Shown here piece after piece: positions 4,202 to 62,316 of a stretch of DNA of 64,000 nucleotides (position 1 is its first letter; each line of letters opens with the position of its first letter). Below the pieces are notes generated by a model that ran no database searches, had not been told where the DNA came from, and saw only the letters and a list, made by a program, of their open reading frames with translations. The DNA comes from a virus (lineage: Duplodnaviria; Heunggongvirae; Uroviricota; Caudoviricetes). The translations under genes were made by a program, and so were the position numbers. Location: IMG/VR virus record IMGVR_UViG_2791355477_000007; one strand, 5' to 3'.

Positions 4202-4585
4202 GTGCCAAATGAAAATATGATACTTGTAATTTTTTTCATTGGAATACCGATGTTTTCTCTATTGTTTTGCTTATTCCCGATTATAACGATAGTAGTAGCT
4301 TTGGGAATTTGTCTGCTATTTTCTATATGGTGTACGATTACAGATTCTTATATGGAAGTTAGTGATGTGAAAGAATCCATATCTAATAGATTAGACATAT
4401 CAACGGGCGAAATTCTCTTTGATTTAAACAAAAAGAACGCTACTTATTTGAGACCTGGAAACTATAGCGTGTTTACTTCAAAAGGAGAATTTATTCTGGA
4501 GTTAGGAATTGAGTATAACAACTTCTATTGGATTGAATTAAGCCAAGTATCGGATGTTAATTTCATAGATGAATTAAACATATGA
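4202..4585 (+). CDS. small membrane protein, paralog family member (type A)
   Basis: 2 N-terminal TM helices; C-terminal VFTSKGEF...ELSQVSDVNFIDEL motif shared across array; GTG start with AAGGAGAG RBS. Confidence 0.55.
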   Translation: MPNENMILVIFFIGIPMFSLLFCLFPIITIVVALGICLLFSIWCTITDSYMEVSDVKESISNRLDISTGEILFDLNKKNATYLRPGNYSVFTSKGEFILELGIEYNNFYWIELSQVSDVNFIDELNI

Positions 4586-4602
4586 GATAGGAGGGATAGG
4601 TA

Positions 4603-4983
4603 ATGGATGAAGAAGGAATTATAGGTTGTTTTGGTGTCTTAGCAATTTTAGGAGCATTATTCTACTGTTTCCCCATTATTATGGCTGTTATTACATTCAC
4701 GATTATAATAATTGGTGTTTGGACGGTTCACTCTGATTCTAAAGATAATAGAAAAAAGTTTCTTACTGATTTGCAATCTGAAATACCTCAGAAGCTTAGA
4801 ATTACAAAAGATGAAGTAATTTATGATTTCGGAGAAAAAGGTGAATCTTCATGGAAATACGAAGACTTTCGAATTTTTACTTCCAGAGGAGAATTCATTG
4901 TAAAGATTAAAGATGTAGATAAGAAAGATATTGAGTTAGAGCAAGTATCTGATGTTGATTTCATGAAGGAGTCGAAACAATAA
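4603..4983 (+). CDS. small membrane protein, paralog family (type A)
   Basis: TM N-term; FRIFTSRGEFIVKI...ELEQVSDVDFMKE. Confidence 0.6.
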   Translation: MDEEGIIGCFGVLAILGALFYCFPIIMAVITFTIIIIGVWTVHSDSKDNRKKFLTDLQSEIPQKLRITKDEVIYDFGEKGESSWKYEDFRIFTSRGEFIVKIKDVDKKDIELEQVSDVDFMKESKQ

Positions 4984-5357
4984 TGATAGCAGAAATTTTA
5001 ATGGTCTTTGGGCTCATAGTTGGGTTGATTATAGCTATTTCTCGTTTATCTCCTATAATTGGAATTATTTTCTTAATCATGCTATTGATTGGCATTGTCG
5101 TATTTAGTCATTACATACGAAAAGAAGAGCTTACAGAGTTAAAAGAAGTAATAGCTCATAACCTGTCAATTTCACAGAAAGAGATATTATTTGATGTTGA
5201 ACGAACGAGAAAATCTTTCTTAGGATGGAGAAAACTATATGTTTTTACATCAAAGGGAGAATTTGAAGTCAATATACATAGAGATAATGGTGAATGGGTA
5301 GGTATAGATTTGATTTCTATTTCAAATGTCGATTATATGAAAGAATTAAACTACTAA
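4983..5357 (+). CDS. small membrane protein, paralog family (type A)
   Basis: start overlaps previous stop (ATGA); YVFTSKGEFEV...ISNVDYMKEL. Confidence 0.6.
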   Translation: MIAEILMVFGLIVGLIIAISRLSPIIGIIFLIMLLIGIVVFSHYIRKEELTELKEVIAHNLSISQKEILFDVERTRKSFLGWRKLYVFTSKGEFEVNIHRDNGEWVGIDLISISNVDYMKELNY

Positions 5358-5478
5358 ACAAAATGAAGAGAGGTGTAAACATAATGGTTATGCGTTTTAT
5401 TGATGGATGTTTCAACAAAATATGTTTTTACATATTCTCTTCATTTTTATATGAATGAATTTTTAGAGAGGTGTCTAT

Positions 5479-5988
5479 ATGGATAAAAAGAATTATGAAA
5501 GTTTGTTCATGATGGGTCTGACAATTATGTCGATTATGGCTATAGTGGAAGAGAATTTTCAACGATATTTTATTATTTTATTGATATATATATGCTTCAT
5601 TACTATGATTCATTTCTTTCTTAATTATAAAAAATCTAAAACAAAAAATATGGTAGTCATTGAAGAATGCGTGAGAGAGAGTTTTACAAAATTAATAAAT
5701 GACTCCTATTATAAACTTTACGAAAATCAGCACCCTAAAGAAGTGGAAGAGAAATTCTTAGAGACAGTTAGAGCAATGAACATTATCATTCATCGAAACG
5801 GAGCATTGAATAAAAGCTCTTTCAAAGATAGATGCTTAAAAGGTTTTTACGAAGAAGACATCCGATTCTTTACAATGTTTGGAGAGTATACCTGTACTGT
5901 GAATGTATTAAAAGATGGATTAGGTGAACTGAAGAACCTCGACCAAATTTCTGATTTGGATTTTGATAAAGCGTTGAAAGGGATTTAA
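5479..5988 (+). CDS. small membrane protein, paralog family (divergent type B)
   Basis: TM N-term; ...CLKGFYEEDIRFFTMFGEYTCTVNV...ISDLDFDKAL. Confidence 0.5.
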   Translation: MDKKNYESLFMMGLTIMSIMAIVEENFQRYFIILLIYICFITMIHFFLNYKKSKTKNMVVIEECVRESFTKLINDSYYKLYENQHPKEVEEKFLETVRAMNIIIHRNGALNKSSFKDRCLKGFYEEDIRFFTMFGEYTCTVNVLKDGLGELKNLDQISDLDFDKALKGI

Positions 5989-6072
5989 AAATTGTAATAT
6001 TTATTTGTTTTTAGAATTTTTTAGAATTTATTCCTTAAAGTAGGAAGAAGGTTATGTAAAGGAGTTGAGGAT

Positions 6073-6531
6073 ATGTCTGATAACAATACTTCATCTATAC
6101 TATTCACGATGATAATTCCGCCTTTAGGGTTCATATTATTCTTGCTAAGACCTTCGTTGACAAAACTATATACAAACCATTTTACTGCATTTATTTTGGG
6201 GTTTATTGGTGTTGTCATGTGTATTATAGGAATCTCGCTTTATATTTACAAAATAGAATACAACCGTATTAAAAACAAAGATTTTGATAGAGTAAAAAAA
6301 ACTCTAACAAGGTACCTCAAAAAGAGTTTTGTATTAGTGGAAGAAGAAAAAGGATTAACAAAAAAGGATATCAATAAAAGATGTTTTACATCTTATCAAA
6401 CAAAATTCACTGTTTTTGTTCCCGATGGAGAACTCTTATGCACTGTAAACGTGAGTGAATATGACGTTGATGTTATGAAAGTAAAACGAGTATCAAAAAT
6501 GAATTTAAATAAAGAACTTTATGCGAGTTAA
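6073..6531 (+). CDS. small membrane protein, paralog family (type B)
   Basis: EYNRIKNKDFDRVKK..L.KRCF.SYQ..F.VFVPDGELLCTVNV signature. Confidence 0.6.
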   Translation: MSDNNTSSILFTMIIPPLGFILFLLRPSLTKLYTNHFTAFILGFIGVVMCIIGISLYIYKIEYNRIKNKDFDRVKKTLTRYLKKSFVLVEEEKGLTKKDINKRCFTSYQTKFTVFVPDGELLCTVNVSEYDVDVMKVKRVSKMNLNKELYAS

Positions 6532-6534
6532 TAT

Positions 6535-7032
6535 ATGCAGGAAATGGGTGAGAAGGCAATGTTTGATGCAGAGGTAGTAGAGAATCCATTTATTATTATA
6601 TTATTTATCGTGCTTGTTGGACTGTGTAAAGTCTTCTATGCCACAAATGCTTTCGCTTTCTATATTGTGATTACAGCTCTTCTTAGCATTATTTTAGGCA
6701 CGATATATTTTATTTACAAAAAAGAATACAACCGAATAAAACAAAGGGATATGGATAGAGTAAAAGCTACTTTGACGAGATTTCTCAGAACAAAGTATTC
6801 AACAATGTCCCAGATTAATAGTTTTTTTGTATTAATGGAAGAAGAGAAATATGTATCAAAAATAACTATTTTAAAAAGATGCTTTAAATCGTATCAACTA
6901 ACTTTAACAACGTTTATTCCAAGTGGAGAGCTTTTATGTTCTGTTACAGTGAGTGAAAACAAAGTTGATATTGATGAAGTAAGAGAAATTTCAATGTTAG
7001 ATTTAAAGAAAGAGCTGTATGTGAATAAGTAA
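6535..7032 (+). CDS. small membrane protein, paralog family (type B)
   Basis: EYNRIKQRDMDRVKA...KRCFKSYQL...PSGELLCSVTV. Confidence 0.6.
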   Translation: MQEMGEKAMFDAEVVENPFIIILFIVLVGLCKVFYATNAFAFYIVITALLSIILGTIYFIYKKEYNRIKQRDMDRVKATLTRFLRTKYSTMSQINSFFVLMEEEKYVSKITILKRCFKSYQLTLTTFIPSGELLCSVTVSENKVDIDEVREISMLDLKKELYVNK

Positions 7033-7058
7033 ATAGAGTATGTAAGGAAGTGATTTGG

Positions 7059-7553
7059 ATGTTTGATGATGAATCTAACGATTTATTAGTTTGTATAATG
7101 TTTGCACCAGTAGTTATTACGATTATAGCGTTTCTAATTATCTCTTTTGTACATATGTTTGTTAATTTCTATAATTCAAATATATTTTACTTTATAACAG
7201 GGGTTTCTGCTTTTGTTAGCTTAGTTGCAGGAAATGTGTATTGTCTTTACAAGAAAGAATATAACCGAATTAAAACAAATGATTTTAATCGAATAAAAGA
7301 AGAAATAAAAAAACATATTCGTAGTTGCTATGTAGAAAATACTTTTTGTTTAGTTGAAGAAAAAGAAGTTTCAAAAAGAGAAATTTTGAAAAGATGTTTT
7401 CGTACATACGAATTGTCGATTCATGTTTTTGCTCATCATGGAGAATTGGTTTATCAAACAAAGGTAAATAAAGATGAGGTATGGTTCAAAAACATAACGC
7501 AAGTTTCAAACGTGAATTTTGCAAAAGAATTTTATAAGAAATCAAAAATATAG
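7059..7553 (+). CDS. small membrane protein, paralog family (type B)
   Basis: EYNRIKTNDFNRIKE...KRCFRTYEL...HGELVYQTKV; ATG 7059 preferred (RBS AAGGAAG 7 nt upstream) over GTG 7050. Confidence 0.55.
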   Translation: MFDDESNDLLVCIMFAPVVITIIAFLIISFVHMFVNFYNSNIFYFITGVSAFVSLVAGNVYCLYKKEYNRIKTNDFNRIKEEIKKHIRSCYVENTFCLVEEKEVSKREILKRCFRTYELSIHVFAHHGELVYQTKVNKDEVWFKNITQVSNVNFAKEFYKKSKI

Positions 7554-7626
7554 GAATAGATACTTTATCAATTCCTATATAAATCCAAAAATATTTAAAG
7601 TTTAATAGTTTAAGGGAGGGCTTAAA

Positions 7627-8121
7627 ATGTGTGATAAGGAGTCGGAAGAACACTCTAATTCAAATTTATTCCTGTATGCACTTCTGCCTTTAATAGCGTT
7701 CTTGCTTCCATTTCTTAAGCCAGAGCTGAGTTCCGAGAACTTTATAAAATTCGTCAATACACTAATAGGTGTTCTTGTATTTGTGGTTGTATGTATCTCT
7801 ATAACCTTCTTGAGAAGAGAATATAACCGCATTAAAAGGAAAGATTTTGTTCGAATCAAGGAACAAGTTACACAGCATGTAAAAGAGCACTACTACTTAG
7901 GAATGCAAGACAGTTTTATTTTAATTGATAAGGAGAAAAATCTAACAAGAAAAGAAATCTTAAAAAGATGTTTTTCTACATATAAGGTAAAGATTCCTGT
8001 ATTTGCTCCAAGTGGAGAGTTTCTATATGAAGTGAAGGTTAATGAACAAGATGTAGAAATAATAAACTCTAAACGGGTATCACATGTTAGCTATGGTAGA
8101 GAGCTATATGTATATAAATAA
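7627..8121 (+). CDS. small membrane protein, paralog family (type B)
   Basis: EYNRIKRKDFVRIKE...KRCFSTYKV...PSGEFLYEVKV; RBS GGGAGGG. Confidence 0.6.
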   Translation: MCDKESEEHSNSNLFLYALLPLIAFLLPFLKPELSSENFIKFVNTLIGVLVFVVVCISITFLRREYNRIKRKDFVRIKEQVTQHVKEHYYLGMQDSFILIDKEKNLTRKEILKRCFSTYKVKIPVFAPSGEFLYEVKVNEQDVEIINSKRVSHVSYGRELYVYK

Positions 8122-8190
8122 ATGGGTATGTTAAAAATAAATATTTTTTTATATTAATAAAAAGATATGAAGAAGGAAGGAGATGTAGAA

Positions 8191-8688
8191 ATGTTTCATA
8201 AAGATGACCCAGAAGTAGTTTTAATGAAATATACAATTTTTTTGGGAATAGGATTAATCGTTTTCAACATCATAGTATGGGGTGTTTTATGGGTTACGAA
8301 TCTTGTTATGAATAATCTAACTGTAGTTATGTATGGAATTACAGGGATTGTTTTTATCGGAGTAGGTATTTCGATGTGTTTTATCAGGAAAGAATATGAC
8401 CGTATTACAAAATATGATTTTGACAGAGTTAAACGCTTATTAAGTCAGTATCTTAATGAAGAATATTTTAATGGCCAGAATAATAGTTTTATTTTAGTAG
8501 AAGAGGAAAAGGGAGTAACAAAGAAGGATTTTTTGAAGAGATGCTTTGCCACCTATCATATAGATTTAAAGGTGTTTGTTCCAGATGGAGAACTTTTATG
8601 TACTGTAAAGGTATATAAAGAAGGAATCCGAGTAAAAAATGTTAAGCGTCTTTCTCATATGAATTATAGAAAAGAATTTACGAAATAA
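8191..8688 (+). CDS. small membrane protein, paralog family (type B)
   Basis: EYDRITKYDFDRVKR...KRCFATYHI...PDGELLCTVKV; ATG 8191 has RBS GAAGGAAGGAG, upstream ATG 8167 lacks one. Confidence 0.55.
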   Translation: MFHKDDPEVVLMKYTIFLGIGLIVFNIIVWGVLWVTNLVMNNLTVVMYGITGIVFIGVGISMCFIRKEYDRITKYDFDRVKRLLSQYLNEEYFNGQNNSFILVEEEKGVTKKDFLKRCFATYHIDLKVFVPDGELLCTVKVYKEGIRVKNVKRLSHMNYRKEFTK

Positions 8689-8755
8689 ATACATATCCAA
8701 TAAATATTTTTGGGTTTATATAAGAATTGATAATAAATAAAAGGAGAGATTTTAA

Positions 8756-8938
8756 ATGTTTAAAGATGTAATTAAAAAAGTAGGTTCTATGCAAAATGTA
8801 ATTTCAGCTTCTTGTATCGGTGGTGGAGCAATTCTATTCAATTGGTTATTCCCTAAAATCACACTGTTTATCATTATCGGATTGTTAATTTTTAAGTATA
8901 ACGAACCAGTAAAAAAACGACTTTTTAAAGATAAATAA
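8756..8938 (+). CDS. small hydrophobic protein (60 aa)
   Basis: strong RBS AAAAGGAGAG; two predicted TM segments; inside paralog array. Confidence 0.4.
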   Translation: MFKDVIKKVGSMQNVISASCIGGGAILFNWLFPKITLFIIIGLLIFKYNEPVKKRLFKDK

Positions 8939-8952
8939 GAAAGGGAATTCAA

Positions 8953-9348
8953 ATGAAAACGAATAAAATTCAAATCGCAGTAGTAGTAGTTCCTTATTTT
9001 GTTTTATTAACAAAGTTTGTTATGAATCATAATATAGCAGGTTCTGTTATTTTGACCATATATGCTGTACTTATTTACAATTTCATCTCTTTATTTAAAT
9101 TAATTGATATGAAAGAGGTTAATTTTAAGAGAATTCATAGGAAATTAAAAAGTGTCATGAAGTTAAAAAATGATGATTGCATTGTAAAGTGTGACCAAAA
9201 GGTTCCTTTTATACATGTATTAATTGGAAAAGAACAATCTTACCTTTCAACATGCAATGTCTTAACCGCAAATGGGGAATTCACCATTTTAGTTGAGGTA
9301 ACACCAAAAGAAATTATTATTAAGCATAAAGAGTGTGTTCAGCAGTAG
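8953..9348 (+). CDS. small membrane protein, divergent member of paralog family
   Basis: TM N-term; C-term ...LTANGEFTILVEV... resembles GEF motif. Confidence 0.45.
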   Translation: MKTNKIQIAVVVVPYFVLLTKFVMNHNIAGSVILTIYAVLIYNFISLFKLIDMKEVNFKRIHRKLKSVMKLKNDDCIVKCDQKVPFIHVLIGKEQSYLSTCNVLTANGEFTILVEVTPKEIIIKHKECVQQ

Positions 9349-9367
9349 AAAAATGTGGAGGGGAATA

Positions 9368-9778
9368 ATGATGAATATAACATCTCATGTGGAAAATTCA
9401 AAATATGTCTTATTAGGAATATTGGGGGGTATCACATTTTTTGCGGTTGTTATTCGCCCTCTCTTTTATTTAGTCCCTGTATATATGAAGTATATAAAGA
9501 ATAGAAAAGTAGAGGCAGAGAAAAGAATTGTAACAGTTAAAGAATATGTTTCAAAATGCTTTGGGGTAGAACAAGAATCAATAGTCGTAGAATGTTTAGA
9601 AAATAAATCGACTTCTAAGTTAAAGGGATTTTATGAATATATGACAAAGAAAGCAGAATCATATCGTGTGTTTTGTGAGCATGGAGAATTTATTTTCAAA
9701 ATGGACATGTATGATGGTAATACAAAACTTACTGATGCCAAAATGGTATCTGATACAAATTTCAAAGATGCATTATAA
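9368..9778 (+). CDS. small membrane protein, divergent member of paralog family
   Basis: RBS GGAGGGG before ATGATG; YRVFCEHGEFIFKM...MVSDTNFKDAL. Confidence 0.5.
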   Translation: MMNITSHVENSKYVLLGILGGITFFAVVIRPLFYLVPVYMKYIKNRKVEAEKRIVTVKEYVSKCFGVEQESIVVECLENKSTSKLKGFYEYMTKKAESYRVFCEHGEFIFKMDMYDGNTKLTDAKMVSDTNFKDAL

Positions 9779-9816
9779 AGAGTGTCTGATTAATGGAAAT
9801 GTGAGGTGTAAATAAC

Positions 9817-10194
9817 ATGTATAGAAAAGAATTTATTTGTAGTGTAATAGGTTTTTTGTTTGCTATAATTGGCTCTATTTTGAACATGAATATCTTTTCT
9901 GGTGGTGTTCTTTTTATTTCATTATTAGGGGTTATATATATTTATAAAAAAAAGCTAAAAGGAGAGTCCATCATAGCTGATAGAGTAGTGAAAGCTCGTA
10001 TTTATGAAAAGTTTTATTCTCCTATATATGCTCCTGAAGGAAAAACAGTCCTATTCGAAAAATCGTTAGAAAATACATATCGAATTTTTACAAAAAAAGG
10101 GGAGTATGTACTCACTATACATTCTTCGGCACAAGGAATTGGCTATGAGTATAAGAAAGTATCAGATGTAGATTATTTCAAAGAAATTTCGTGA
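9817..10194 (+). CDS. small membrane protein, paralog family (type A)
   Basis: YRIFTKKGEYVLTI...KKVSDVDYFKEIS. Confidence 0.6.
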   Translation: MYRKEFICSVIGFLFAIIGSILNMNIFSGGVLFISLLGVIYIYKKKLKGESIIADRVVKARIYEKFYSPIYAPEGKTVLFEKSLENTYRIFTKKGEYVLTIHSSAQGIGYEYKKVSDVDYFKEIS

Positions 10195-10226
10195 TGGAAG
10201 CAAAATAATAAAGGGGTGAAAAAAGG

Positions 10227-10613
10227 ATGAGCAAGGCTAAGTATCTATTGGTAGGTTTAATTTTTGTTTTTGGAATATATATATACCCATACGTTGATGA
10301 GCTTGGTGTTTTAATCGGTGTTGCAGTTTTTGTATATTTTATTTTGTATGATTTAAAAACATTTATTGAAAAGATAGATGATAAGAACAAAGATATCGGA
10401 TTGAGGGAATCACTTCATATAGTCTTTTCTGCTCCTAAATATGCTCCTGAAGGAAAAAAGGTCATTATTGAATTTGTTAAAAAAGATGAGTATCGAGTTT
10501 ATACAAAAAAAGGAGATTACTCCATTGTTATTGAGCGAGGGGAAGAAGATGCAATACTGAATATGAAAAAGGAAAAATTATCAGACGTAGATTTCTTCAA
10601 AGAAGTATTTTGA
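10227..10613 (+). CDS. small membrane protein, paralog family (type A)
   Basis: PKYAPEGKKVII...YRVYTKKGDYSIVI...KLSDVDFFKEVF. Confidence 0.6.
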   Translation: MSKAKYLLVGLIFVFGIYIYPYVDELGVLIGVAVFVYFILYDLKTFIEKIDDKNKDIGLRESLHIVFSAPKYAPEGKKVIIEFVKKDEYRVYTKKGDYSIVIERGEEDAILNMKKEKLSDVDFFKEVF

Positions 10614-10634
10614 TTTTATTAAGAAAACTATGTT

Positions 10635-11027
10635 ATGAAGGGACTGATAAAGGTGAAGTATCTACTATTAGGAATTTTTATCTTTTCAATTTATAGATTT
10701 CCATCTTTCGATAATTTCAATATCTTAATTGGCTCATTTTTGTTTGTTGTTTTTATTGTATATGATGTTGTCAATATGAAGTTAAAAAGAGAAGAACTAA
10801 ATGAGGATGAGCGATTAAGAAAGATGATTTATAGAAATTTTCCTGCTCCTGAGTTTGCACCAGAAGGGAAACAGGTAATTATTGACCGTTTAACATCAGA
10901 TGAGTACCAAGTATATACAACAAAAGGAGCCTATTCTTTTATTGCTGTGAGAGGACCATTTGATTTAATTGTTGATATAAAGGAAGAAAAGCTGTCAGAC
11001 ATAGATTTTTCCAAAGTAATAGCTTGA
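10635..11027 (+). CDS. small membrane protein, paralog family (type A)
   Basis: PEFAPEGKQVII...YQVYTTKGAYSF...KLSDIDFSKVIA. Confidence 0.6.
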   Translation: MKGLIKVKYLLLGIFIFSIYRFPSFDNFNILIGSFLFVVFIVYDVVNMKLKREELNEDERLRKMIYRNFPAPEFAPEGKQVIIDRLTSDEYQVYTTKGAYSFIAVRGPFDLIVDIKEEKLSDIDFSKVIA

Positions 11028-12821: not shown

Positions 12822-13217
12822 GTGTTAGAAATGAAACTGCAAAAACCACTTAAAACAGTTAAAGTATGTATTCTATTATTAACTTGTTCATCTTTTTTGT
12901 TCGGTTGTGAGCATACAGTTAGAACAGAAGAAAATGTGATAGGACAAGTAGTAGATAGACAAATAGAAAAAGTGAAAATTGAAGGCGACTGCACTCAGAT
13001 TCCGATTGGGGATACTGGTGTTTTTATGCCAATTTGTGATGATGATAAAGAAGAAGAGCATTTTAATGTAACAGTTCAAGCCCATGGAATTACTACAATT
13101 CTTAATGATAAATCAATGTTTGAGAGCAAAGAGAAAGAACTTCCTGTTATTTATATAAAAGAAGTAGGGGAAGAATCAAACAAAGTCTATGATGAGCGGT
13201 TAATATTACCTTATTAA
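12822..13217 (+). CDS. putative lipoprotein
   Basis: signal peptide with lipobox LFGC (…CSSFLFGCEH); start abuts previous stop. Confidence 0.55.
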   Translation: MLEMKLQKPLKTVKVCILLLTCSSFLFGCEHTVRTEENVIGQVVDRQIEKVKIEGDCTQIPIGDTGVFMPICDDDKEEEHFNVTVQAHGITTILNDKSMFESKEKELPVIYIKEVGEESNKVYDERLILPY

Positions 13218-13392: not shown

Positions 13393-14763
13393 TTATACCT
13401 GAATTGGTACATCAATTTTAGCTCTTGCTACGCAAACCCCTTGTTTAACTATATAACATTCAACAAAGTGTTCACCGTTAAAAGATGTACATTCTTTAAG
13501 TGTTTCTGAATTGGTTTTAATAATTTGTCCTCTTACACAGTTTCTTTCTTTCGCTACATCCCCACGGTTTTTAACTTTCCAATACACATGATATGGTTTT
13601 GTAACGTAATTGTCTTTTATATAAAAATCCAATTGTTTGCTGATTGGTAAATGCAGACCTCTTTCTAACCAATCATTTAAAAAATAAGGTCGAAAACCAT
13701 CCTGTGTAATGCGACAGTCTAAAGATAAGTGGTACTGAATATTTACAGGGAACATATATTCAATAAATTCCTCAGACTCGTTGTATAGTCTACTCTCTGT
13801 AGAAGCATAAGATTTGCTTACAGCCGAATTTGTTTCTTTTTCTTGTTCTAATTGTTTTTCCCAATATTCATGATTAAAGAACTCTTGCCATGCTTTAATT
13901 GCTTGTTCGGGTGTACAACCTTCCTCAAACAAAACTTCCAACTTTCCTAAATAAGTTGTTAATCTTCTTTCTAATCTGTCCAACCGAACATCATCTTTTT
14001 GAATTAATTTAAGGCTTTGCTCTTCATCAGTGGGGTTATTTACCTCTTTATCTATGGTCAATCTATCTCTTACTGCAACTAATGTATGATAAAACATTTC
14101 ATCTATGCGTGTTTCAGCTTGAAAACATTCGTTGAGAAGTACGGATTGAACTAAACCACCAGGCATTTCCCATTTAGGTCTGGATTTACAAAACATTTTC
14201 AACAGTCTTGCTACAATACGAAGGTTATAATTCTTCTTTTTATTTTCATTATTAAACCACTTGGTAATACTTCTTGGGTCTCTTGGCCGCCATTCGCTTC
14301 CGCAATGTTCGTATTTATATTCACCATATTCGTCTTTATATCTTCGATAAATAGCAAAATCAATGTGATAGCCCTCTTCATAAACAATTCGTACACAGTT
14401 TGTTTTTGCTGTAGGTGGTTCTTTAAATTGTTTACATTTCTTTTTCAGTGCGGTTACTACCATATTCTTTGTTGCGGTTGTTCCTTCAGGTAAGTTGTCC
14501 TTATCAAAAATGATAGCAACATCAATATCGTAATCTTTACTTTCATTTTGCACAACTGTAGACATAGCTACGCTTCCCTGAACAACGGTATCTACAATTG
14601 AATAATTTGTTTTCTTTTCCTCGTTGTATTCTTTTAATCCATCTTTTAATCTATCAAGATTCGATGTTCTAAGCTTAAATAATCGATTTTTTTCTTTACC
14701 TTGTAACACAACATGTTTTTTGTAAAACGTCATAAGCTTGTTATTTAAGTCGTACATAAGCAT
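13393..14763 (-). CDS. CBASS cGAS/DncV-like nucleotidyltransferase (CD-NTase)
   Basis: pol-beta NTase signature QGSVAMSTVVQNESKDYDIDVAII (GS...DxD) and downstream HIDFAIY third acidic residue; 456 aa; co-oriented and 6 nt from a multi-TM effector-like gene. Confidence 0.7.
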   Translation of the reverse strand: MLMYDLNNKLMTFYKKHVVLQGKEKNRLFKLRTSNLDRLKDGLKEYNEEKKTNYSIVDTVVQGSVAMSTVVQNESKDYDIDVAIIFDKDNLPEGTTATKNMVVTALKKKCKQFKEPPTAKTNCVRIVYEEGYHIDFAIYRRYKDEYGEYKYEHCGSEWRPRDPRSITKWFNNENKKKNYNLRIVARLLKMFCKSRPKWEMPGGLVQSVLLNECFQAETRIDEMFYHTLVAVRDRLTIDKEVNNPTDEEQSLKLIQKDDVRLDRLERRLTTYLGKLEVLFEEGCTPEQAIKAWQEFFNHEYWEKQLEQEKETNSAVSKSYASTESRLYNESEEFIEYMFPVNIQYHLSLDCRITQDGFRPYFLNDWLERGLHLPISKQLDFYIKDNYVTKPYHVYWKVKNRGDVAKERNCVRGQIIKTNSETLKECTSFNGEHFVECYIVKQGVCVARAKIDVPIQV

Positions 14764-14769
14764 CCTCCA

Positions 14770-15861
14770 TTAAGCTTGAATGTATTTACCTTTCTCGTCA
14801 CCGTTAAGAACAATGCCCCAAGGATATTTTTTTGGGGTATGCATATCAAAGAAGTAGCAGATAACTTGTGCCATTCTATAATTTTCAATTCTTTTTCCTA
14901 TTTCTAATGCTAAACAACTTTGACTGGAACAAACCAAATGAACTTTTGTTGCTCCAATTTCTTCAATCGTATCCATGATAGTTTTTACATAATCTTTAAG
15001 TTGATTTGTATAGCGTATTTTATTATCATCTGGTGTATCTACTGCCAGTTTCACAACATCTACGCCTTCAAACTGAGTTAATTGAGCATCCTTAATTTCT
15101 TTTGTGACAGAAATAGATAATACCACTTCTATTGCATTTGGATTTAAATGATTCAAATCTGTTTTAACCTCTAAAGCAGAGTATCCATTACCTTCTTTTA
15201 ACTCGTAGAATTTTTCAGTTTCTATTTTGTCGAACTCGAAATAATGGTCTATTTTTTCTCTTTGTAAATACGTTCCTGCTAATGCTACAAACGGGATAGG
15301 AGCGATACCTGTGTAACCTCTTTTAAACTCTTTACTTTCATCTTTAAAGGAAGTTATTTTTTCTTTCAGCATATTAGCGATATCTTTTGTAGTAGTAGGA
15401 TTTATACCTTTTTTATAGGTTTGAATGAAATCAATTTCTCTTTCTTTGAATTCAAATGTTCCTAAACCTAAATCACGATTATGTCCTTCAATTCTTTTAT
15501 CAAAATAACCGTTGATGTTTAAAATGAATATTCTATTTTTAATATATCTCCAGAAGTAAATTCCTGCTACGAATAATAGTGCACCGACAATAAGTTGAAG
15601 AACATTAGGTTCGGACATTTCTTTTGTAATAGCGATGGATTCTTTCGCTGTTTCGCTATTTTTTAAGATTGATAGGGTTTGGAGTGGTTTGTCCCAGGGA
15701 GAACCAAAAGCACTGACAACTAAAGAAAGACCCGTTGTAATTAACAAGGAGGATAAGCTTTGTTCTTTATTTTGGCTTGAAAACTGTTTGATTACAAACA
15801 AACCTCCAATACCAATAATAGCAATAACTAAAATGATAATAAAAATAGCCAATATTTTCAC
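14770..15861 (-). CDS. CBASS effector candidate: 3-TM N-terminus + ~250-aa C-terminal sensor-like domain (TM-SAVED-like?)
   Basis: three N-terminal hydrophobic helices then soluble domain; operonic with CD-NTase; SAVED assignment is inference from architecture only. Confidence 0.5.
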   Translation of the reverse strand: MKILAIFIIILVIAIIGIGGLFVIKQFSSQNKEQSLSSLLITTGLSLVVSAFGSPWDKPLQTLSILKNSETAKESIAITKEMSEPNVLQLIVGALLFVAGIYFWRYIKNRIFILNINGYFDKRIEGHNRDLGLGTFEFKEREIDFIQTYKKGINPTTTKDIANMLKEKITSFKDESKEFKRGYTGIAPIPFVALAGTYLQREKIDHYFEFDKIETEKFYELKEGNGYSALEVKTDLNHLNPNAIEVVLSISVTKEIKDAQLTQFEGVDVVKLAVDTPDDNKIRYTNQLKDYVKTIMDTIEEIGATKVHLVCSSQSCLALEIGKRIENYRMAQVICYFFDMHTPKKYPWGIVLNGDEKGKYIQA

Positions 15862-16126: not shown

Positions 16127-16897
16127 ATGAATTTAGATGGAATGAAAGAATTAATTAAACAAAGTGCAATGAAAAGAAAACAAATGTTTACAGAATTGAA
16201 GGAACCTTGGGAAGTTGTTACGTTGTATTACGGAACAACAAGTAAAAAATTGAATGATATTTTACAACATGGAATTACTCCTCAAAATGGTGTACCTTCA
16301 CATCCTGAGTTGGTTTATTTAACAACAAAATGGCATTATTGGTACGCTTTCCAGGAAAATAAAAAATCATTAATTGCAACTGTAGGAAAAGAACGATATG
16401 AATCAGAGTCTATTACTTCTCTTTGGAATGAAACAGGTGACTTTCCAATTTATATTTCTTTAGAAGTGCCAAAAGAAATATTGGTATTAGATGAAAATGT
16501 GGTTCATCAATTAGATATTAAAGAGAAAATTCAAAATGGCGATATTGAAAGCCCAGATGATATTTCGTTAGAGGATTGTTTAGAACATGGCATGGTAGCT
16601 TCGATTGATACGATTAAACCTTGGTATATAGATGAGGTTAACATTATTGGTAGTGAAGAATATAGGGATGATTTGTTAGATGGAGCATATGGAGAAGAAG
16701 CGAATCTTTGGTTTAAAGGATTTGGGATTGGCTCAATAACTGCTGATTCATTAAATTTATATGAGCAAGTAGCTTATGGTAATTTAGTGAAAGTTGTGGT
16801 GTTTTCTCCAATTATTGAAGATAATCCTAAAATAAAAAGTATTTATATTAAAGACGAGAAATTACAAATTGACTTTGATTGGAATTGGTTTAAGTGA
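16127..16897 (+). CDS. hypothetical protein with Tpt1/KptA-like HGT NAD-binding motif (ART-fold candidate); paralog of 17071..17850
   Basis: LYYGTTSKKLNDILQHGITPQNG...ELVYLTT resembles KptA [29 protein letters not shown]; ~60% identical to next gene. Confidence 0.4.
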   Translation: MNLDGMKELIKQSAMKRKQMFTELKEPWEVVTLYYGTTSKKLNDILQHGITPQNGVPSHPELVYLTTKWHYWYAFQENKKSLIATVGKERYESESITSLWNETGDFPIYISLEVPKEILVLDENVVHQLDIKEKIQNGDIESPDDISLEDCLEHGMVASIDTIKPWYIDEVNIIGSEEYRDDLLDGAYGEEANLWFKGFGIGSITADSLNLYEQVAYGNLVKVVVFSPIIEDNPKIKSIYIKDEKLQIDFDWNWFK

Positions 16898-17070: not shown

Positions 17071-17850
17071 ATGAATTTAGAAGAAATGAAAGAACGAATC
17101 AAACAAAATGCGGTAAAAAAGAAACAGTCATTTACCGAAGTAGAAGAGCCCTGGGACACGATTACTCTATATCACGGAACGACAACTAAAAGATTAAATG
17201 AGATTTTAAAACATGGAATTACATCTCGAAATCAAAATGAAATAAATAATTTTACTCATGTGCCTTCAAATCCTGAGTTGGTGTATTTATCAATAAAATG
17301 GCATTATTGGTACGCTTTTCATGCGAACAAGGAGTCACTCATTAATCAAGTAGGGAAAGAACGTTACGAATCTGAATCTATCACTTCACTTTGGAACGAG
17401 ACTGGAGATTTTCCAGTTTATATTGTTTGTGAAGTACCTAAAGAATTATTGGTACTGGATGAAGATGTAGTCTATCAGTGGGGGATTAAAACGAAAATTA
17501 AGAATGGAGAAATAGAAGGACCAGATGATATCTCAATAGAAGAATGCTTACAACAAGGAACAATCGCTTCACTTGATACGATTATTCCTTTATATATGAA
17601 TGAGATTATTATTATTGGTAGTGAAGAATATAGAGAAGAACTATTAGGTGGGATGTATGGTGTAGAGGCAGGAAAATGGTTCCATGGATTTGGAATTGGT
17701 TCTCTTACTGCTGATTCATTAAGCGTACATGAAATCATGAAGTATAGTAAATTTCTTCATATACTGCCTGTTGAACCTATTCCAGAGCAAAATAAGTCTA
17801 TTAAACGGATTTATATTGAAGAGGAAGAATTACAGGTTGAATTTGAATGA
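17071..17850 (+). CDS. hypothetical protein with Tpt1/KptA-like HGT motif; paralog of 16127..16897
   Basis: LYHGTTTKRLNEILKHGITSRN...ELVYLSI; own AAACAGGTATTT box and RBS. Confidence 0.4.
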   Translation: MNLEEMKERIKQNAVKKKQSFTEVEEPWDTITLYHGTTTKRLNEILKHGITSRNQNEINNFTHVPSNPELVYLSIKWHYWYAFHANKESLINQVGKERYESESITSLWNETGDFPVYIVCEVPKELLVLDEDVVYQWGIKTKIKNGEIEGPDDISIEECLQQGTIASLDTIIPLYMNEIIIIGSEEYREELLGGMYGVEAGKWFHGFGIGSLTADSLSVHEIMKYSKFLHILPVEPIPEQNKSIKRIYIEEEELQVEFE

Positions 17851-18056
17851 TAGAGAATCTGAATTAGGTATCCTTTCACAAGGTTCTACGATATAATAAA
17901 TATATATCTGTTCTATATTTTTTGTGGAGCATCCATCATTATTTGATGGGTGTTTTTTTATAAGCTCGAACCATTTTGGTCTATCTATATAGATGAAATA
18001 TGGATAAAATGAAATTGTAGAGCTAACAACCTTTTATAAAAAGAATATTAATAGGG

Positions 18057-18725
18057 GTAAGTGTTATTAAATTTAGGTATCATCATACTCTAATTATATA
18101 TGAACTTCATGTTATTAGAACATGTTTGCAAATTCGTCAAACAGAAGTTAATTACTTATAAAGAACTAATTGTTATTAAAAGTAGGGAGTCTTGTCTTTA
18201 TCTATTATATAAAACTATATGTTATTAAAAGAACGGTTCTTTCTTAATTAATTTATATTGAACTATATGTTGTTAAAAGAATAATAAATTGAGGAGAAAG
18301 ATTTGGATGAATATTAGGCAGTTAAAAGAAAAAGAAGTTACAATGAATGCTTTGAATGGATTTGCTAATCGGACTAAAAAAGCAATAAAGCATTTGAAAA
18401 AGGAAAATGCCCCAAATTTAGTTGTGGAGACTCTTGTAGACCAAATAGAGATTGCAAAGAGATTAGCAGGAGAATTAAAAAATGAAATCTCAGAAGACAT
18501 CAAAGAAAGAGCACTCCAGAGAATTAATTACGGTGATATAACTGAAGTGAAGTTTGTTCCAGAAAATTAAAGTGTTTGAAAAATATAAAGAACTCAATGT
18601 TATTGAAACCTGCCATTTAAATGGAAGTAGTAGTTGGTAATTTATCGTTCGAACTATTTGTTATTAGCATTATAAGGACGCCTTTATTTAGCAAAAACTT
18701 ATAAAAAACTATATGTTATCTATTA
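18057..18725 (+). repeat. array A of degenerate 19-bp repeats (rAACTwwwTGTTATTrrAA), 8 units, interrupted by a small ORF
   Basis: units at ~18057,18102,18162,18211,18260,18589,18651,18706; spacing 45-62 bp; preceded by AAGCTCGAACCATTTTGGTCTATCTATATA at 17963. Confidence 0.7.
18305..18570 (+). CDS. hypothetical small protein embedded in repeat array A
   Basis: RBS GAGGAG 8 nt before ATG 18305; helical, Lys/Glu-rich. Confidence 0.35.
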
Positions 18726-18943
18726 TTTATTATGAACAATGGCTATTGTAGTCATTGTTTTTATTTTGTTTTTTATTCTCTTATGTATCCGATATAACTT
18801 GCTTATAATATATAGATTTAATGAAAAAGGAGTGATAATTTCACAATGTAAAAAAGTTATGTTTTTAAAAAGGATTTTTATTGTTCTGTATCAATTATAT
18901 GTATGTAGTTGATTTGCTTTTTATTTTAAAGAGGTGATATTGT

Positions 18944-20315: not shown

Positions 20316-20600
20316 AAAATTAATTTATATATGATATAGAAGGTGATAGGATGGAGAAAAAGTTTAAAAGTAATCTTTTGAAGGAGAAGCCTGTGACGTA
20401 TGCACCACACCTTAAAAATTCCCCTTCAAAAACGAAAGAATTAATTGATGAGATAAAAGTTGAAATATTAAAGATGAAAAACAAATAGCAAAGGGGCTTT
20501 TACATGAGAAAAGAGCCTCTGAAAATTTGGGGGCTCGAACCGTTTTGCTATATACAAATTTATTCTATTTCTGTAATCTAAAAGAAAGATGAAATTGTAT

Positions 20601-20840
20601 AAAGCTAAATGTTATTATAAATGTCTAAGTAAATTTTATATTTAGAATGAACTTATTGTTATTAATACTATGTATAGAAACTGTTTACTTATCAATTTTC
20701 ATCGTTTAAAAACAACTAATTGTTATTGAAATATGCACGAGAGCACACTCTGATATCTCTTATGAAGAACTTATTGTTATTAGGATGTTCGTGATTCAGT
20801 TCCGTATTCAAAATTATAAAACTTAATGTTATGAACATAA
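20601..20840 (+). repeat. array B of degenerate 19-bp repeats, 5 units
   Basis: units at 20601,20649,20713,20766,20818; preceded by GGGGGCTCGAACCGTTTTGCTATATAC at 20529; last unit extends into palindrome GTTATGAACATAAC. Confidence 0.7.
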
Positions 20841-20953
20841 CTTCTTGCTAAGAGCAAGGAGTTTTCTTTTTTTTATAACCCAAACCACAAAAGTCTATAA
20901 TAAATAAATTTATAAAATAGGTATTCATTTGAATTTATTTAGGAGGATGTAAC

Positions 20954-22765: not shown

Positions 22766-22853
22766 TTTTTAGGGGGTCGAACCGTTTATCTATATGCAAG
22801 GAGTTATTGTGGGTGTAAAATGATAAATATCAAGATGGTAAATGGCAGTTAAT

Positions 22854-23437
22854 GAAAACTTTTTGTTATTATAAGCAAGGAACTGGCAGTATTCTTGAAG
22901 TTTGTATAAGGAACTAAATGTTATTAAAAAATGAAAAGTACAATAGTAACCATATCAGCAAATAAACAATTATATAGAACTATATGTTATTGAAATAACG
23001 TTTTTCGTATCGTATGAGTACATTTTAAAGTTAAAACTTATTGTTATTAGAATTAACAACAAATGAGACGATGCCCAATGTACAAAGAACTTACTGTTAT
23101 TAAAAAGTTAAAGCATAAACGAAAGAGTTAGCCATCTTATTAGTTGTAGAACTATATGTTATTGGAATCTTATTCCTTCATCTCTTAAGATAAATTATGA
23201 ATAAACTGAGTGTTATTAAAACGTTAAAGAGTAAACGATGGAATTAGTAATGGTACTAATAGATTAACTAATTGTTATTAAGATATACTGAAACCACCCG
23301 AAAAATATATAGAACTAAGTGTTATTAGAATTCTGCATCCAAGGGCATGAATATTCTATTAAATTAAACTAATTGTTATTGAAATACGTCTCTTTTTATG
23401 CGTATGACATTTGAAGTTGAACTATATGTTATAAAAA
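22854..23437 (+). repeat. array C of degenerate 19-bp repeats, 11 units, abutting 3' end of integrase gene
   Basis: units at 22854,22910,22975,23030,23085,23148,23203,23262,23312,23365,23419; invariant AACT..TGTTAT; inter-unit sequences pairwise similar (e.g. units 5/7 and 3/10). Confidence 0.75.
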
Positions 23438-23462
23438 AGAATGAGCAGAGTGAATTCTCTGC

Positions 23463-24629
23463 TCATTTTAATTCTGCCATTAATTCATTTATATCCATCC
23501 CTAACTTATCTGCAAGTTGCTCCAGTTTAGATAATTGAATGGAATCATTACTTGTCTTTTTTTTCGTGTATTCATAATCAAACTGCTTCATGGATTCGGA
23601 GACACGTTCTTGAGAAGGGTCCGCATAAAACCTTCGAGTTGTTTCCGCAGAGCCGTGTCCGAGTACCTGTGCAGTCAAATACATATCCTGATAAGTATTG
23701 TAATGATTTGTTCCAAATGTACGTCTAAAAACATGGGGTGTTATCTTTATATCTAAACCACTACGAACTCTATATTTCTCCAACATTAAACGAACTGTTC
23801 TTTCATTCATCCGTTTTTTATGAAGGGAAACAAATAGGGCCTTTGCATCTTCTTTTTTTACATCGGTTAATTTCTTTCTCTCCACAAGATAATCTGTTAA
23901 ATCATCAAGAATCCTTCCTGGCATCGGGATAGCTTGTTCATCTCCACCCTTTCGAATGACAACAAGCATCTGCTTTTCTATATATACATCATCTATATCC
24001 AACTGAACCAATTCGGATACTCGAATACCTGTGTAAGCCATAGTTAATACCATAATGTAATCTCTAAATTTAACCTTTTTATGAAAATTTTCTTTTCTTG
24101 AGTTTTCGATATGTACATCTTCTACAATTGTTTTGAAGAATCGTTCAATATCTCCAGGACTTAATCTATTTTTAATTTTCGCTTTGGTAGGTACTTTCAT
24201 TTCTATACCTGCTGTTACATCTTTGGATAATCGCTTTTGCTTAAATAAATACCCAAAAAACTTATGTAAAGTAGCAAGTTTTCTTGATTTCCCACTGGAT
24301 GTATTCGTGAATTCTTGTGTGGTTTCTTTACCTTTTGAAGTGAAAAAGGTTTTTGAATAATGTGTTAAGTAATCCATAAAATCAATAATATCTCTATCTC
24401 GTAAAGAATCTAAATCTACTGTTGTAATATCCCTGGTATGGCTTGCTGAAACTTTGTTATCGAGCAGAAGAAAATCAAAAAATAGATTCAGGTCTTTAGC
24501 ATATTCGATACGAGTGTTTAATTCTTTTGATGTTTCTAATGAATAAATGAAGTCCACTGCACAGTCAGGAAGAGAGAGGAGCTTTTTTCGTAATTTCTCT
24601 TGACGTTTAATTTCAATATCCTTCTTCAT
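23463..24629 (-). CDS. tyrosine site-specific recombinase/integrase
   Basis: box I AYTGIRVSELVQLDIDDV; box II HVFRRTF...LGHGSAETTRRFY (R-H-R-Y catalytic residues). Confidence 0.85.
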   Translation of the reverse strand: MKKDIEIKRQEKLRKKLLSLPDCAVDFIYSLETSKELNTRIEYAKDLNLFFDFLLLDNKVSASHTRDITTVDLDSLRDRDIIDFMDYLTHYSKTFFTSKGKETTQEFTNTSSGKSRKLATLHKFFGYLFKQKRLSKDVTAGIEMKVPTKAKIKNRLSPGDIERFFKTIVEDVHIENSRKENFHKKVKFRDYIMVLTMAYTGIRVSELVQLDIDDVYIEKQMLVVIRKGGDEQAIPMPGRILDDLTDYLVERKKLTDVKKEDAKALFVSLHKKRMNERTVRLMLEKYRVRSGLDIKITPHVFRRTFGTNHYNTYQDMYLTAQVLGHGSAETTRRFYADPSQERVSESMKQFDYEYTKKKTSNDSIQLSKLEQLADKLGMDINELMAELK

Positions 24630-25677: not shown

Positions 25678-25873
25678 TTGTATCTCCTTTAAAAAGAGGT
25701 TTTATATGTAAGTATTCCCAAGTTAAAAAAAATAAATTCTATCTGTTCAGAAATATAATTCCTAATATTCCCAAAATACAGATAAATATTTCTACAGTTG
25801 TAATATATTAACATTAAAGTAAATTATGTTACAGTTGATATGTAAGTTATAAAACTATCAAGGGGGAATTAGT

Positions 25874-36300: not shown

Positions 36301-36609
36301 ATGTTTTATTTTGGAATCTCAGAAAAAGAAGGATGGTACTATACATCTACGTTTAATGTGTACCAAAAAGTAAACCAGGATGTATATTGCTATGTGAGTC
36401 AATATTTTGGCTATTAAACGGTTCAATTATATGAACGTGGCACAACAGGTCTATGTACATTAGAAGCACGTTCTAAAGGTGATATTGATGCTCTATTTGC
36501 ATTAGGTGAACAATGGCTGTCAGAGCATAAAGATTGGGATGGAGAAAAATTAAAAAACAGCCCGTACTCGATTTCACAAATGGAATGGAGAGAGAACTGT
36601 TGGGTCTAA
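36301..36609 (+). pseudogene. ~102-codon reading frame interrupted by a single in-frame TAA (codon 39)
   Basis: MFYFGISEKEGWYY...YFGY*TVQLYERGTTGL...MEWRENCWV: same frame continues for 64 codons past the stop; RBS GAAGGGG upstream. Confidence 0.35.
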
Positions 36610-36613
36610 TAAA

Positions 36614-37109
36614 TTTCAATAACAAATAAGTGTAATGTAAATATTCAAGAAAATAAGCTGTACATACGTTTTTATAACATTTAGTTTTTTATAGATGATA
36701 TCTAACAAGCCTGGTGTTTCAATAACAGGAAGTTCTTTTTATATGGTAGTAAATAATACTTTAAATTCTTTGTAATAACAAAAAAGTTTTTCAGGATGAA
36801 TCATATACTTAAATTAATAACATCATCTCTTTTAATAATAAATATTTTGTTTTTGATGTGATGGTTTTACATCTATTTAATAACATATAGTTCTCTTTAT
36901 AAATAGGTATACTATACCTTAAGCATAATTTGATAACATGTAGTTCTTTTAAAAAAAGTATTGTAGTAACTGACCCAAAATTTTAATAACAGGAAGTTCT
37001 TTTTAAAATAAAATTTGACATTATACTGAAACTTTGAAATAACATTAGTTTCGCTTTTTTAGTGATTTAGGGTTAAAATTCAAATATTTTATTCCAATAA
37101 CACCTTATC
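36614..37109 (-). repeat. array D of the same 19-bp repeat family, inverted orientation, ~11 units
   Basis: plus-strand reads TTTCAATAACAnnnAGTTC etc. at ~36614,36668,36718,36768,36812,36880,36928,36985,37037,37093. Confidence 0.7.
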
Positions 37110-37395
37110 TTACATCATTTTTTAATAATAATTCATTCAGTTTTTTCTTGAATATTTCAATTTCCGAATCACTTTTTACCATATTATCAATATCATAATT
37201 AACAATAAACTCTTTAACCTGATTATCAAATAAAATTCCTGAGCTGTATTTATTCTTGAACCATTCCTTTTGTTTTAATATATAAAACTTTTTCTTAAAT
37301 ATTTTTTGTTTCTTGGAAGGGATTAAAAGAAAAAGTTGTCCTATTGCTCCTCCTATAAATTCAATCATTGCCCTCAACATCCTTTCTTCTATCAT
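37105..37395 (-). CDS. hypothetical protein (96 aa)
   Basis: ORF; TTGACTATAGTTAAC box at 37604 lies ~210 bp upstream of its start. Confidence 0.35.
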   Translation of the reverse strand: MIEERMLRAMIEFIGGAIGQLFLLIPSKKQKIFKKKFYILKQKEWFKNKYSSGILFDNQVKEFIVNYDIDNMVKSDSEIEIFKKKLNELLLKNDVR

Positions 37396-61864: not shown

Positions 61865-62025
61865 TAATCTAAATAGAGTTCAATTGAGTATATCTTCAAT
61901 TTGAACTCTATTTTTATACATTTACACAGTGAACTTTACTTGTTACAATGTTAACCATATTCACATAACTAAATATTTTATTTTAAATTGCTAAGTTTAT
62001 ATGTTGGAAAGGTGGAAATATAATA

Positions 62026-62316
62026 ATGGAAAATGCAATCATCATTGAAAAAATGATTCAACATATCCGACAATACGCTAAAGAAAGAGCGGAATCTGTT
62101 TCAAGAGGTGCTGAAACTCCACATCTCTCAGGACTTCTTCTTCAAAAATATGGTCGTGGAGTAATAGATACTATAAATGAACTTTATTCGACTCCAAGGG
62201 CTTCTGATGAAATATACAAAATTTTAGATGCAGAGACAGCAAAAATTGACCCAGAATGGAAGCTTCATAACAAGCAGAGATGGTCTGGTCATCCCGCAGA
62301 TATATGCATAAAATAA
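62026..62316 (+). CDS. hypothetical protein (96 aa)
   Basis: RBS AAAGGTGGAAA; terminator 62314-62351. Confidence 0.4.
   Translation: MENAIIIEKMIQHIRQYAKERAESVSRGAETPHLSGLLLQKYGRGVIDTINELYSTPRASDEIYKILDAETAKIDPEWKLHNKQRWSGHPADICIK

Follow-up and report, generated by a model that had tools for sequence, protein, structure and literature searches.

Degenerate repeat arrays on the Bacillus thuringiensis megaplasmid BTB_502p: probable old CRISPR arrays of a plasmid-encoded type I-B system

[quoted passage not shown] Type I-B repeats usually have no stable hairpin, and CCA is the protospacer adjacent motif (PAM) of clostridial type I-B systems. Four other kinds of described element are relevant. 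In haloarchaeal type I-B systems, Cas6 processing yields an 8-nt 5′ handle and a 22-nt 3′ handle, and degenerate repeats preserve the nucleotides on which it depends (PMC8501985), and the divergence of the CreA/CreR mini-CRISPRs and cr-like RNAs has been proposed as a protection from recombinational loss (PMC8501985; bioRxiv 10.1101/2023.03.10.532045). CRISPR-Cas systems are carried by plasmids and huge phages in the competition of mobile elements with one another, as in type IV and the compact arrays borne by phages (PMC11656645), and RNAs that mimic repeats and thereby trap Cas proteins have been described as RNA anti-CRISPRs (Racrs; PMC10651486). Finally, the Bacillus cereus group contains type I-B remnants without cas1, cas2 and cas4, termed “I-B d1”, which the authors of the survey regard as inactivated (Zheng et al. 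2020, PMC7242445).

The window is the reverse complement of about 167-231 kb of plasmid BTB_502p of Bacillus thuringiensis Bt407 (NC_018878.1, 501,911 bp; 100% identity), and the remaining BTB_502p sequence was assembled for a scan of the whole replicon. The 19-mer RAACTWWWTGTTATTRRAA has 28 matches in the window with at most two mismatches, against 0.92 expected from shuffles, no shuffle reaching 28. These matches group into four arrays, A to D, and BTB_502p carries two more outside the window, namely E (record 25.7 kb) and F (beside cas3). An earlier note on this DNA, made from the letters alone, had described array A and allowed that its motif might be simple AT-rich low complexity. The plasmid-wide scan with a position weight matrix (PWM) of the motif excluded random noise of this kind: 33 sites of at least 16 bits were found in the full 502-kb BTB_502p where 0 were expected, and all but one lie in arrays A-F, so the motif is not AT-rich background. 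Arrays A to D are, in our assessment, quite probably old, degenerate type I-B CRISPR arrays of the cas3 / cas6-cas8b-cas7-cas5 system of BTB_502p. The basis is the homology of the repeats, the presence of selected cognate cas genes, the way in which conservation is distributed and a canonical sister array for which a real target exists. Array positions are given below, in window coordinates except where the NC_018878.1 record is named.

Array A: 18013-18725, plus strand, with leader box upstream and terminator downstream.
Array B: 20533-20863, plus strand, with leader box 20533-20555, five units 20593-20838 and terminator 20839-20863.
Array C: 22775-23467, plus strand, with leader box 22775-22797, eleven consecutive units 22847-23438 and bidirectional terminator 23440-23467.
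Array D: about 36600-37110, minus strand, with five intact units and several decayed ones.
Array E: NC_018878.1 record 25696-25860, three repeats, outside the window.

The earlier note had taken the 19-mer to be the selected element, set among drifting spacers behind a conserved leader. These points were borne out; conservation is not, however, limited to the 19-mer, as the note had stated. In an alignment of 28 units, a weaker T-A-t-A-a-A-G signal reaches 10 nt upstream, which gives a unit of about 29 nt with the consensus attTAtAaAG-AACTwwwTGTTAT-TAAAA. Periods of 47-66 nt in arrays A-D leave spacers of 18-37 nt. Conservation is weak in the repeat's 5′ third, and a 3-nt variable stretch inside the core varies freely. 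The repeats of A-D are thus not near-identical and their spacers not uniform, both properties being found only in array E and in the leader-proximal units of a related plasmid, L041.

Arrays A, B and C each run from a leader box to an intrinsic terminator, on the strand that matches the sense of the CRISPR RNA (crRNA). The leader-box core GSTCGAACCRTTT (then ...TATAT) has three copies in the window, against 0.07 expected, each 58-79 nt ahead of array A, B or C. The same distal box heads leaders of about 190 nt in L041, which combine it with a proximal GGTTTACTGCAA box resembling those of array E and of Paeniclostridium hominis. The leaders of arrays A-D are shortened and keep the distal box alone. 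In array A, the box (GCTCGAACCGTTT...TATATA) is the likely promoter region. The 502-kb BTB_502p holds four copies of the box, three of them those of arrays A, B and C. The fourth (GCTCGAACCGTTTTAGTATATAG, NC_018878.1 record 340518, minus strand) was observed between two same-strand genes without an array, and the leader box may have a wider use, as the site of a promoter or regulator.

Homology to a bona fide CRISPR system was established through P. hominis. A scan for three cores in tandem, covering 185,579 species genomes as well as viral contigs, returned unrelated true CRISPR arrays and P. hominis, with no Bacillus among the matches. The repeat of the true P. hominis array, GTTAATATAAAACTATATGTTATTTAAAT, is a near base-for-base match to the Bt407 consensus in the same orientation, and the array adjoins cas5, cas7, a gene of cas8b size and cas6, with cas3 upstream. 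When the P. hominis Cas7 was searched against plasmids, the match was to BTB_502p itself (57% identity). Positions 434-445 kb of the BTB_502p record contain cas3, cas6, a 460-amino-acid (aa) Cas8b-like gene, cas7, an open reading frame (ORF) of 120 aa and cas5, and the Cas6 (WP_001220549.1) and Cas8b proteins are 47% and 43% identical to those of P. hominis. Two marks of a type I-B CRISPR array are present: repeats of about 29 nt matching those of a homologous cas operon, and cognate cas effector genes on the same plasmid, about 220 kb from arrays A-D.

Ratios of nonsynonymous to synonymous substitution (dN/dS) against the diverged sister plasmid L042 were 0.13 for cas3, 0.17 for cas6, 0.13 for cas8b and 0.06 for cas7, which shows that these effector genes are maintained by purifying selection. 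The annotation of the 502-kb BTB_502p contains no cas1, cas2 or cas4, leaving the plasmid without an annotated adaptation module. The “I-B d1” remnants lack the same three genes; unlike them, BTB_502p has cas6 and a cas8b-like gene under purifying selection, and arrays. The survey of Zheng et al. (PMC7242445) does not list Bt407 among strains with a system, and no matching repeat sequence was found in its supplements. With repeats about 80% alike and irregular spacing, the BTB_502p arrays are probably too degenerate for standard CRISPR detection. The locus would represent an overlooked megaplasmid type I-B system of a kind that the B. cereus-group survey would class as inactivated, yet its cas genes are selected. 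A promoter-like box, TTGACTATAGTTTAT(A/T)AAA, was observed upstream of cas3, cas6 and a small ORF (L017:3125, 9400, 9836), and this common sequence suggests that the cas genes are under common regulation. No arrays were found near the cas genes of Clostridium perfringens pJFP838A.

A canonical sister array with an identifiable target was found outside the window. Array E contains two identical 29-nt repeats, GTATAAAGGGAACTAAGTGTTATTAGAAA, and a degenerate terminal repeat at periods of 65 and 66 nt, giving spacers of 36-37 nt, and its leader box, GGATTCACTGCAAAA, is common to the P. hominis leader. Spacer 1 of array E matched more than 150 plasmids of the B. cereus group, mostly of the conjugative pXO2/pAW63/pBT9727 family, in which perfect matches occur; for 36 plasmids the identity is 99% or higher, while B. 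anthracis pXO2 has 2 differences. In pBT9727 the protospacer is situated in the rep-parA intergenic region, with 5′-CCA preceding it. No foreign target flanked by a PAM was found for any spacer of arrays A to D. The target is missing from Bt407's own conjugative plasmid BTB_78p, where the best match has 13 mismatches. The array E spacer is aimed at the replication region of a plasmid family that includes the anthrax capsule plasmid, which suggests CRISPR-mediated plasmid incompatibility among B. thuringiensis biopesticide strains. Record 61956-62050 also contains a leader box of the array E type (GGTTTCAGTGCAAAA, one mismatch), followed about 60 nt on by the repeat-like AACTACATGGGTTGTTAGAG; the latter lies upstream of a 424-aa gene and may be a solitary unit that has decayed.

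The arrays of BTB_502p and those of Clostridia are alike in the core and orientation of the 29-nt repeat, in homologous Cas6, Cas8b, Cas7, Cas5 and Cas3 proteins, in the array E leader box, in the CCA-flanked protospacer and in the 36-37-nt spacers of young units. They differ in that the repeats of A-D are only about 75-85% alike, their spacers measure 18-37 nt and their leaders are truncated, and in that the replicon has no annotated acquisition genes and its arrays are scattered far from the cas genes. The remark in the earlier note that array A is CRISPR-like in layout but not in detail was thus correct as to layout only, since the unit agrees almost base for base with a genuine type I-B repeat, cognate cas genes reside on the plasmid and array E has a PAM-flanked target. 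Type IV systems and phage-borne compact arrays (PMC11656645) share with BTB_502p a mobile carrier, the absence of an annotated adaptation module and a spacer directed against the replication region of a rival plasmid family, whereas BTB_502p has a type I-B effector with Cas3 and far more degenerate arrays.

The two-repeat mini-array F lies directly after the cas3 stop codon (record ~442865-442945), where a 678-aa methyltransferase gene has its ribosome-binding site within reach of the second repeat, the two overlapping. Mini-array F is kept in a sister plasmid, where its spacer is about 75% identical (synonymous divergence, dS, of cas3 0.26) and the cores persist. Strongly degenerate repeats that keep the nucleotides for Cas6 processing and the 5′ handle are common to the BTB_502p arrays and CreA/CreR (PMC8501985; bioRxiv 10.1101/2023.03.10.532045). 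[quoted passage not shown] The layout of mini-array F fits CreA/CreR, but no complementarity to the cas promoters was found, there being no match of at least 9 nt to the regions upstream of cas3 or cas6, which does not favour a role for it as a cas autoregulator.

Comparison with related plasmids showed which parts of the arrays are conserved. Syntenic arrays are present in L038 (genome GCA_002561465.1) and L041 (genome GCA_044764345.1), whose tyrosine recombinases are 94% and 91% identical to that of BTB_502p; the numbers of units differ, and some spacers are orthologous at 70-100% identity while others have been replaced. In the aligned arrays of the window and L038, divergence was 1.3% at the 10 fixed core positions, 33% in the variable stretch inside the core, 27% in the 5′ part of the repeat and 13-14% at the 3′ handle positions, compared to about 9% for clearly orthologous spacers, 8% for other intergenic DNA and 6.6% for coding DNA. 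Set against the values for spacers and intergenic DNA, the figure for the core indicates purifying selection on the core, with none visible on the guides. Array C retains 110 of 110 core positions intact over its 11 consecutive units. The position at which Cas6 is expected to cut, 8 nt from the 3′ end of the repeat, falls within the conserved core, in keeping with the haloarchaeal type I-B pattern (PMC8501985). One L041 array begins with two identical 29-nt repeats, GTTTATACAGAACTTAGTGTTATTTAAAT, at a period of 65 nt and continues with progressively degenerate units. This order is read as an age gradient in which units would enter in canonical form and then drift and shorten, with arrays A-D of Bt407 holding old units alone.

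If arrays A-D are old type I-B arrays, the 19-mer, rAACTwwwTGTT/ATTrrAA, would be the 3′ two-thirds of the 29-nt repeat, comprising the 11 nt before the expected Cas6 cut together with the greater part of the 8-nt 5′ handle, which would remain on the crRNA. The leader box would supply the promoter, the array would be transcribed through to its terminator, Cas6 would cut every unit 8 nt before its 3′ end and the products would load into Cascade. The arrays would have been built by normal acquisition at the leader end, with identical repeats and 36-37-nt spacers, until renewal stopped. From then on drift would have affected the spacers, which also shrank, as well as the repeat's 5′ third and the 3-nt variable stretch, selection keeping only the nucleotides for recognition by Cas6 and Cascade. 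Divergence of the rest may also guard the units against loss via repeat-repeat recombination. Arrays A-D may then be regarded as a natural experiment on the fate of arrays after acquisition stops, in which only the nucleotides around the Cas6 cut stay fixed and so map what the effector needs.

Several observations weigh against this interpretation. The spacers are irregular, 18-37 nt long in A-D, unlike the product of a Cas1-Cas2 ruler, and orthologous spacers drift at the neutral rate, so that the guide sequences do not look selected. No protospacer was found for the roughly 25 spacers of A-D together with spacers of the two relatives in 50,697 phage and 72,556 plasmid records; the A-D spacers gave chance-level matches alone against phages and plasmids, and none of the spacers of the relatives' arrays matched a phage. 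A search for self-targets on BTB_502p returned nothing above shuffles except one 17-nt match flanked by mismatches, which was judged to be chance. The proximal leader motif was not found in arrays A to C, and the repeat forms no stable hairpin (folding z-scores about 0). Core conservation is also inflated by the use of the core motif to find the units, a bias which the runs of 10-11 units and the comparison of syntenic arrays lessen but do not remove. A preference for unit spacing in 6-nt steps, one Cas7 subunit each, was tried post hoc and rejected (Rayleigh p 0.007 in Bt407, p = 0.85 in the independent units of relatives, pooled p = 0.11).

Why units persist while their guides drift is a question that the locus raises. 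There is a small but appreciable chance that the old units are selected for a job independent of any target, whether as a reservoir or sponge that adjusts the amount of free Cas6 and Cascade or blunts the related type I-B systems carried by rival megaplasmids, or as Cas6 cut sites that free the mRNAs of neighbouring small ORFs. If so, arrays A-D would be a multi-unit CRISPR-derived regulatory RNA array and not an immune memory.

A small chance was assigned to the explanation that the arrays are neutral relics, i.e. dead CRISPR arrays decaying without function, with core conservation an artefact of how the units were found. Such relics would account for the lack of targets, the neutral drift and shrinkage of the spacers, the truncated leaders and the absence of annotated adaptation genes from the plasmid, and cores have indeed decayed at the start of array A, in the middle of array D and in gaps of L041. 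Neutral decay does not, however, predict essentially perfect cores in 10-11 consecutive units on three plasmids next to 27-33% divergence in the variable stretch and in the 10 nt that adjoin the core, nor 1.3% divergence in the cores of orthologous units compared to 8-9% for neutral DNA, and it conflicts with purifying selection on the cas genes.

We gave a slim chance to a guide-independent role in which the repeat RNA serves as a decoy or sponge for Cas6/Cascade, either in the manner of an RNA anti-CRISPR or to tune the plasmid's own system, or in which Cas6 cut sites release small-ORF mRNAs. Conservation limited to the Cas6 site and handle, with spacer sequence and length free, fits such a role, and the arrays do lie on a mobile element amid small uncharacterised ORFs and defence genes, with one ORF between units and with the second repeat of mini-array F overlapping the next gene's ribosome-binding site. 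Racrs, which offer the precedent for trapping Cas proteins, are also repeat-like units on mobile elements conserved only in their Cas-binding parts (PMC10651486). They are, however, solitary, reside on elements without cognate cas genes and inhibit the system of the host, unlike the arrays of 5-11 units with leaders seen here, and classification of A-D as Racrs was rejected because they are multi-unit arrays whose plasmid itself encodes the cognate Cas proteins. A decoy would furthermore hit the plasmid's own Cas proteins and its working-looking array E, and among the species representative genomes of Bacillus no arrays with this core were found that could be the victim.

The iterons, centromere or arm-type recombinase sites favoured by the earlier note, in short an array bound by protein at the DNA level, have scarcely any chance of being correct: three Bacillus plasmids have array C abutting the tyrosine recombinase gene, gain and loss of units takes place at the boundaries of repeats and the core contains a small AAC..GTT dyad, but the unit is a type I-B CRISPR repeat that recurs both next to cas3 and, at a distance from the recombinase, in a canonical array, no rep or par gene adjoins the arrays, recombinase homologues of about 60% identity on Paenibacillus and Brevibacillus megaplasmids have no arrays nearby, and unit spacing shows no 10.5-bp helical phase (p = 0.07-0.26). 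Iterons of a replication origin were rejected for want of a nearby rep gene and of helical phasing, a partition centromere because the sole ParM gene is at record 367.5 kb, ~155 kb away, and tyrosine-recombinase sites or integron attC sites because of the homologues without arrays and the units distant from the recombinase.

In array A, the earlier note had counted eight copies of the 19-mer over 670 bp, and this count was reproduced, with six units of at most one mismatch (AACT at 18103, 18164, 18213, 18261, 18591 and 18652), a terminal unit (18707) and a degenerate unit (18055). The conserved upstream element that it had placed after a terminator hairpin was confirmed as well, the box at 17961-17991 directly following the hairpin at 17927-17955. 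The features of array A, all on the plus strand, are as follows.

17927-17962: intrinsic terminator of the upstream 259-aa gene, with hairpin 17927-17955 (-16.1 kcal/mol, z -4.3) and then a U-run, directly preceding the leader.
17961-17991: leader box GCTCGAACCATTTTGGTCTATCTATATA (distal leader motif), with a TATATA -10-like hexamer at 17986-17991.
18013-18041: putative repeat unit U0, the first of the array and decayed, as aligned to the opening unit of array B, AATTGTATAAAGCTAAATGTTATTATAAA.
18045-18073: degenerate repeat unit U1, GGTAAGTGTTATTAAATT (PWM at least 9 bits).
18093-18121: repeat unit U2 (25.5 bits).
18154-18182: repeat unit U3 (30.8 bits).
18203-18231: repeat unit U4 (27.9 bits).
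18251-18279: repeat unit U5, with core TGTTGT (26.4 bits).
18285-18729: indel segment bounded by repeat units, holding the 87-aa ORF, U6, U7 and most of U8.
18307-18570: 87-aa ORF in “spacer” position, WP_001026376.1, annotated coding sequence.
18581-18609: repeat unit U6 (28.2 bits).
18642-18670: repeat unit U7 (19.2 bits).
18697-18725: terminal repeat unit U8, degenerate at its 3′ end (16.1 bits).
18734-18760: intrinsic terminator closing array A (-12.1 kcal/mol, z -5.0).

The small ORF embedded in array A is thus present as the earlier note had reported, although its annotated extent is 18307-18570 (87 aa) and not 18305-18570 (88 aa). No Pfam or PHROG family was matched by this ORF or by the other small ORFs in or beside the arrays. 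The ORF is identical, and array A 100% identical, in other copies of BTB_502p, which makes those copies uninformative. The indel segment is missing from L038, with breakpoints inside units, and its 3′ part is present in L041; the sister plasmid that lacks the segment is 90% identical. The gene in “spacer” position appears to move by repeat-repeat recombination. Two tandem paralogues of 256 aa (16127-16897) and 259 aa (17071-17850) were observed directly upstream of array A, one of which has a weak match to Tpt1/KptA (RNA 2′-phosphotransferase).

Array C is convergent with the tyrosine recombinase gene. Its spacers 5 (23107-23139) and 7 (23223-23255) are paralogous to each other and both resemble one L041 spacer, a similarity that indicates internal duplication of units. 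Plasmids of 360-720 kb in Paenibacillus, Brevibacillus, Aneurinibacillus and Clostridium perfringens were observed to carry homologues of the recombinase. One further repeat-like unit stands outside the arrays of the window.

13128-13156: solitary repeat-like unit, plus strand, 18.5 bits, inside annotated coding sequence 12831-13217.

No known RNA families and no tRNAs were found in the window. About 17 same-strand, unannotated ORFs of 124-173 aa at window 4202-11027 resemble an array of immunity-gene or paralogue cassettes. Elsewhere on BTB_502p, a 6-kb block at 100-106.6 kb is almost without coding sequences and contains tRNA-like T-arm sequences, and the plasmid carries the chromosome-like or phage-like genes dnaE, gyrB, topoisomerases, ligA, recG, recJ, secA, clpX, obgE, rplU/rpmA and raiA. 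Two operons resembling cyclic-oligonucleotide-based antiphage signalling systems (CBASS) were also observed within about 20 kb, at window 13393-15861 and record 233834-236255, each consisting of a DncV-like nucleotidyltransferase and a SAVED-domain effector.

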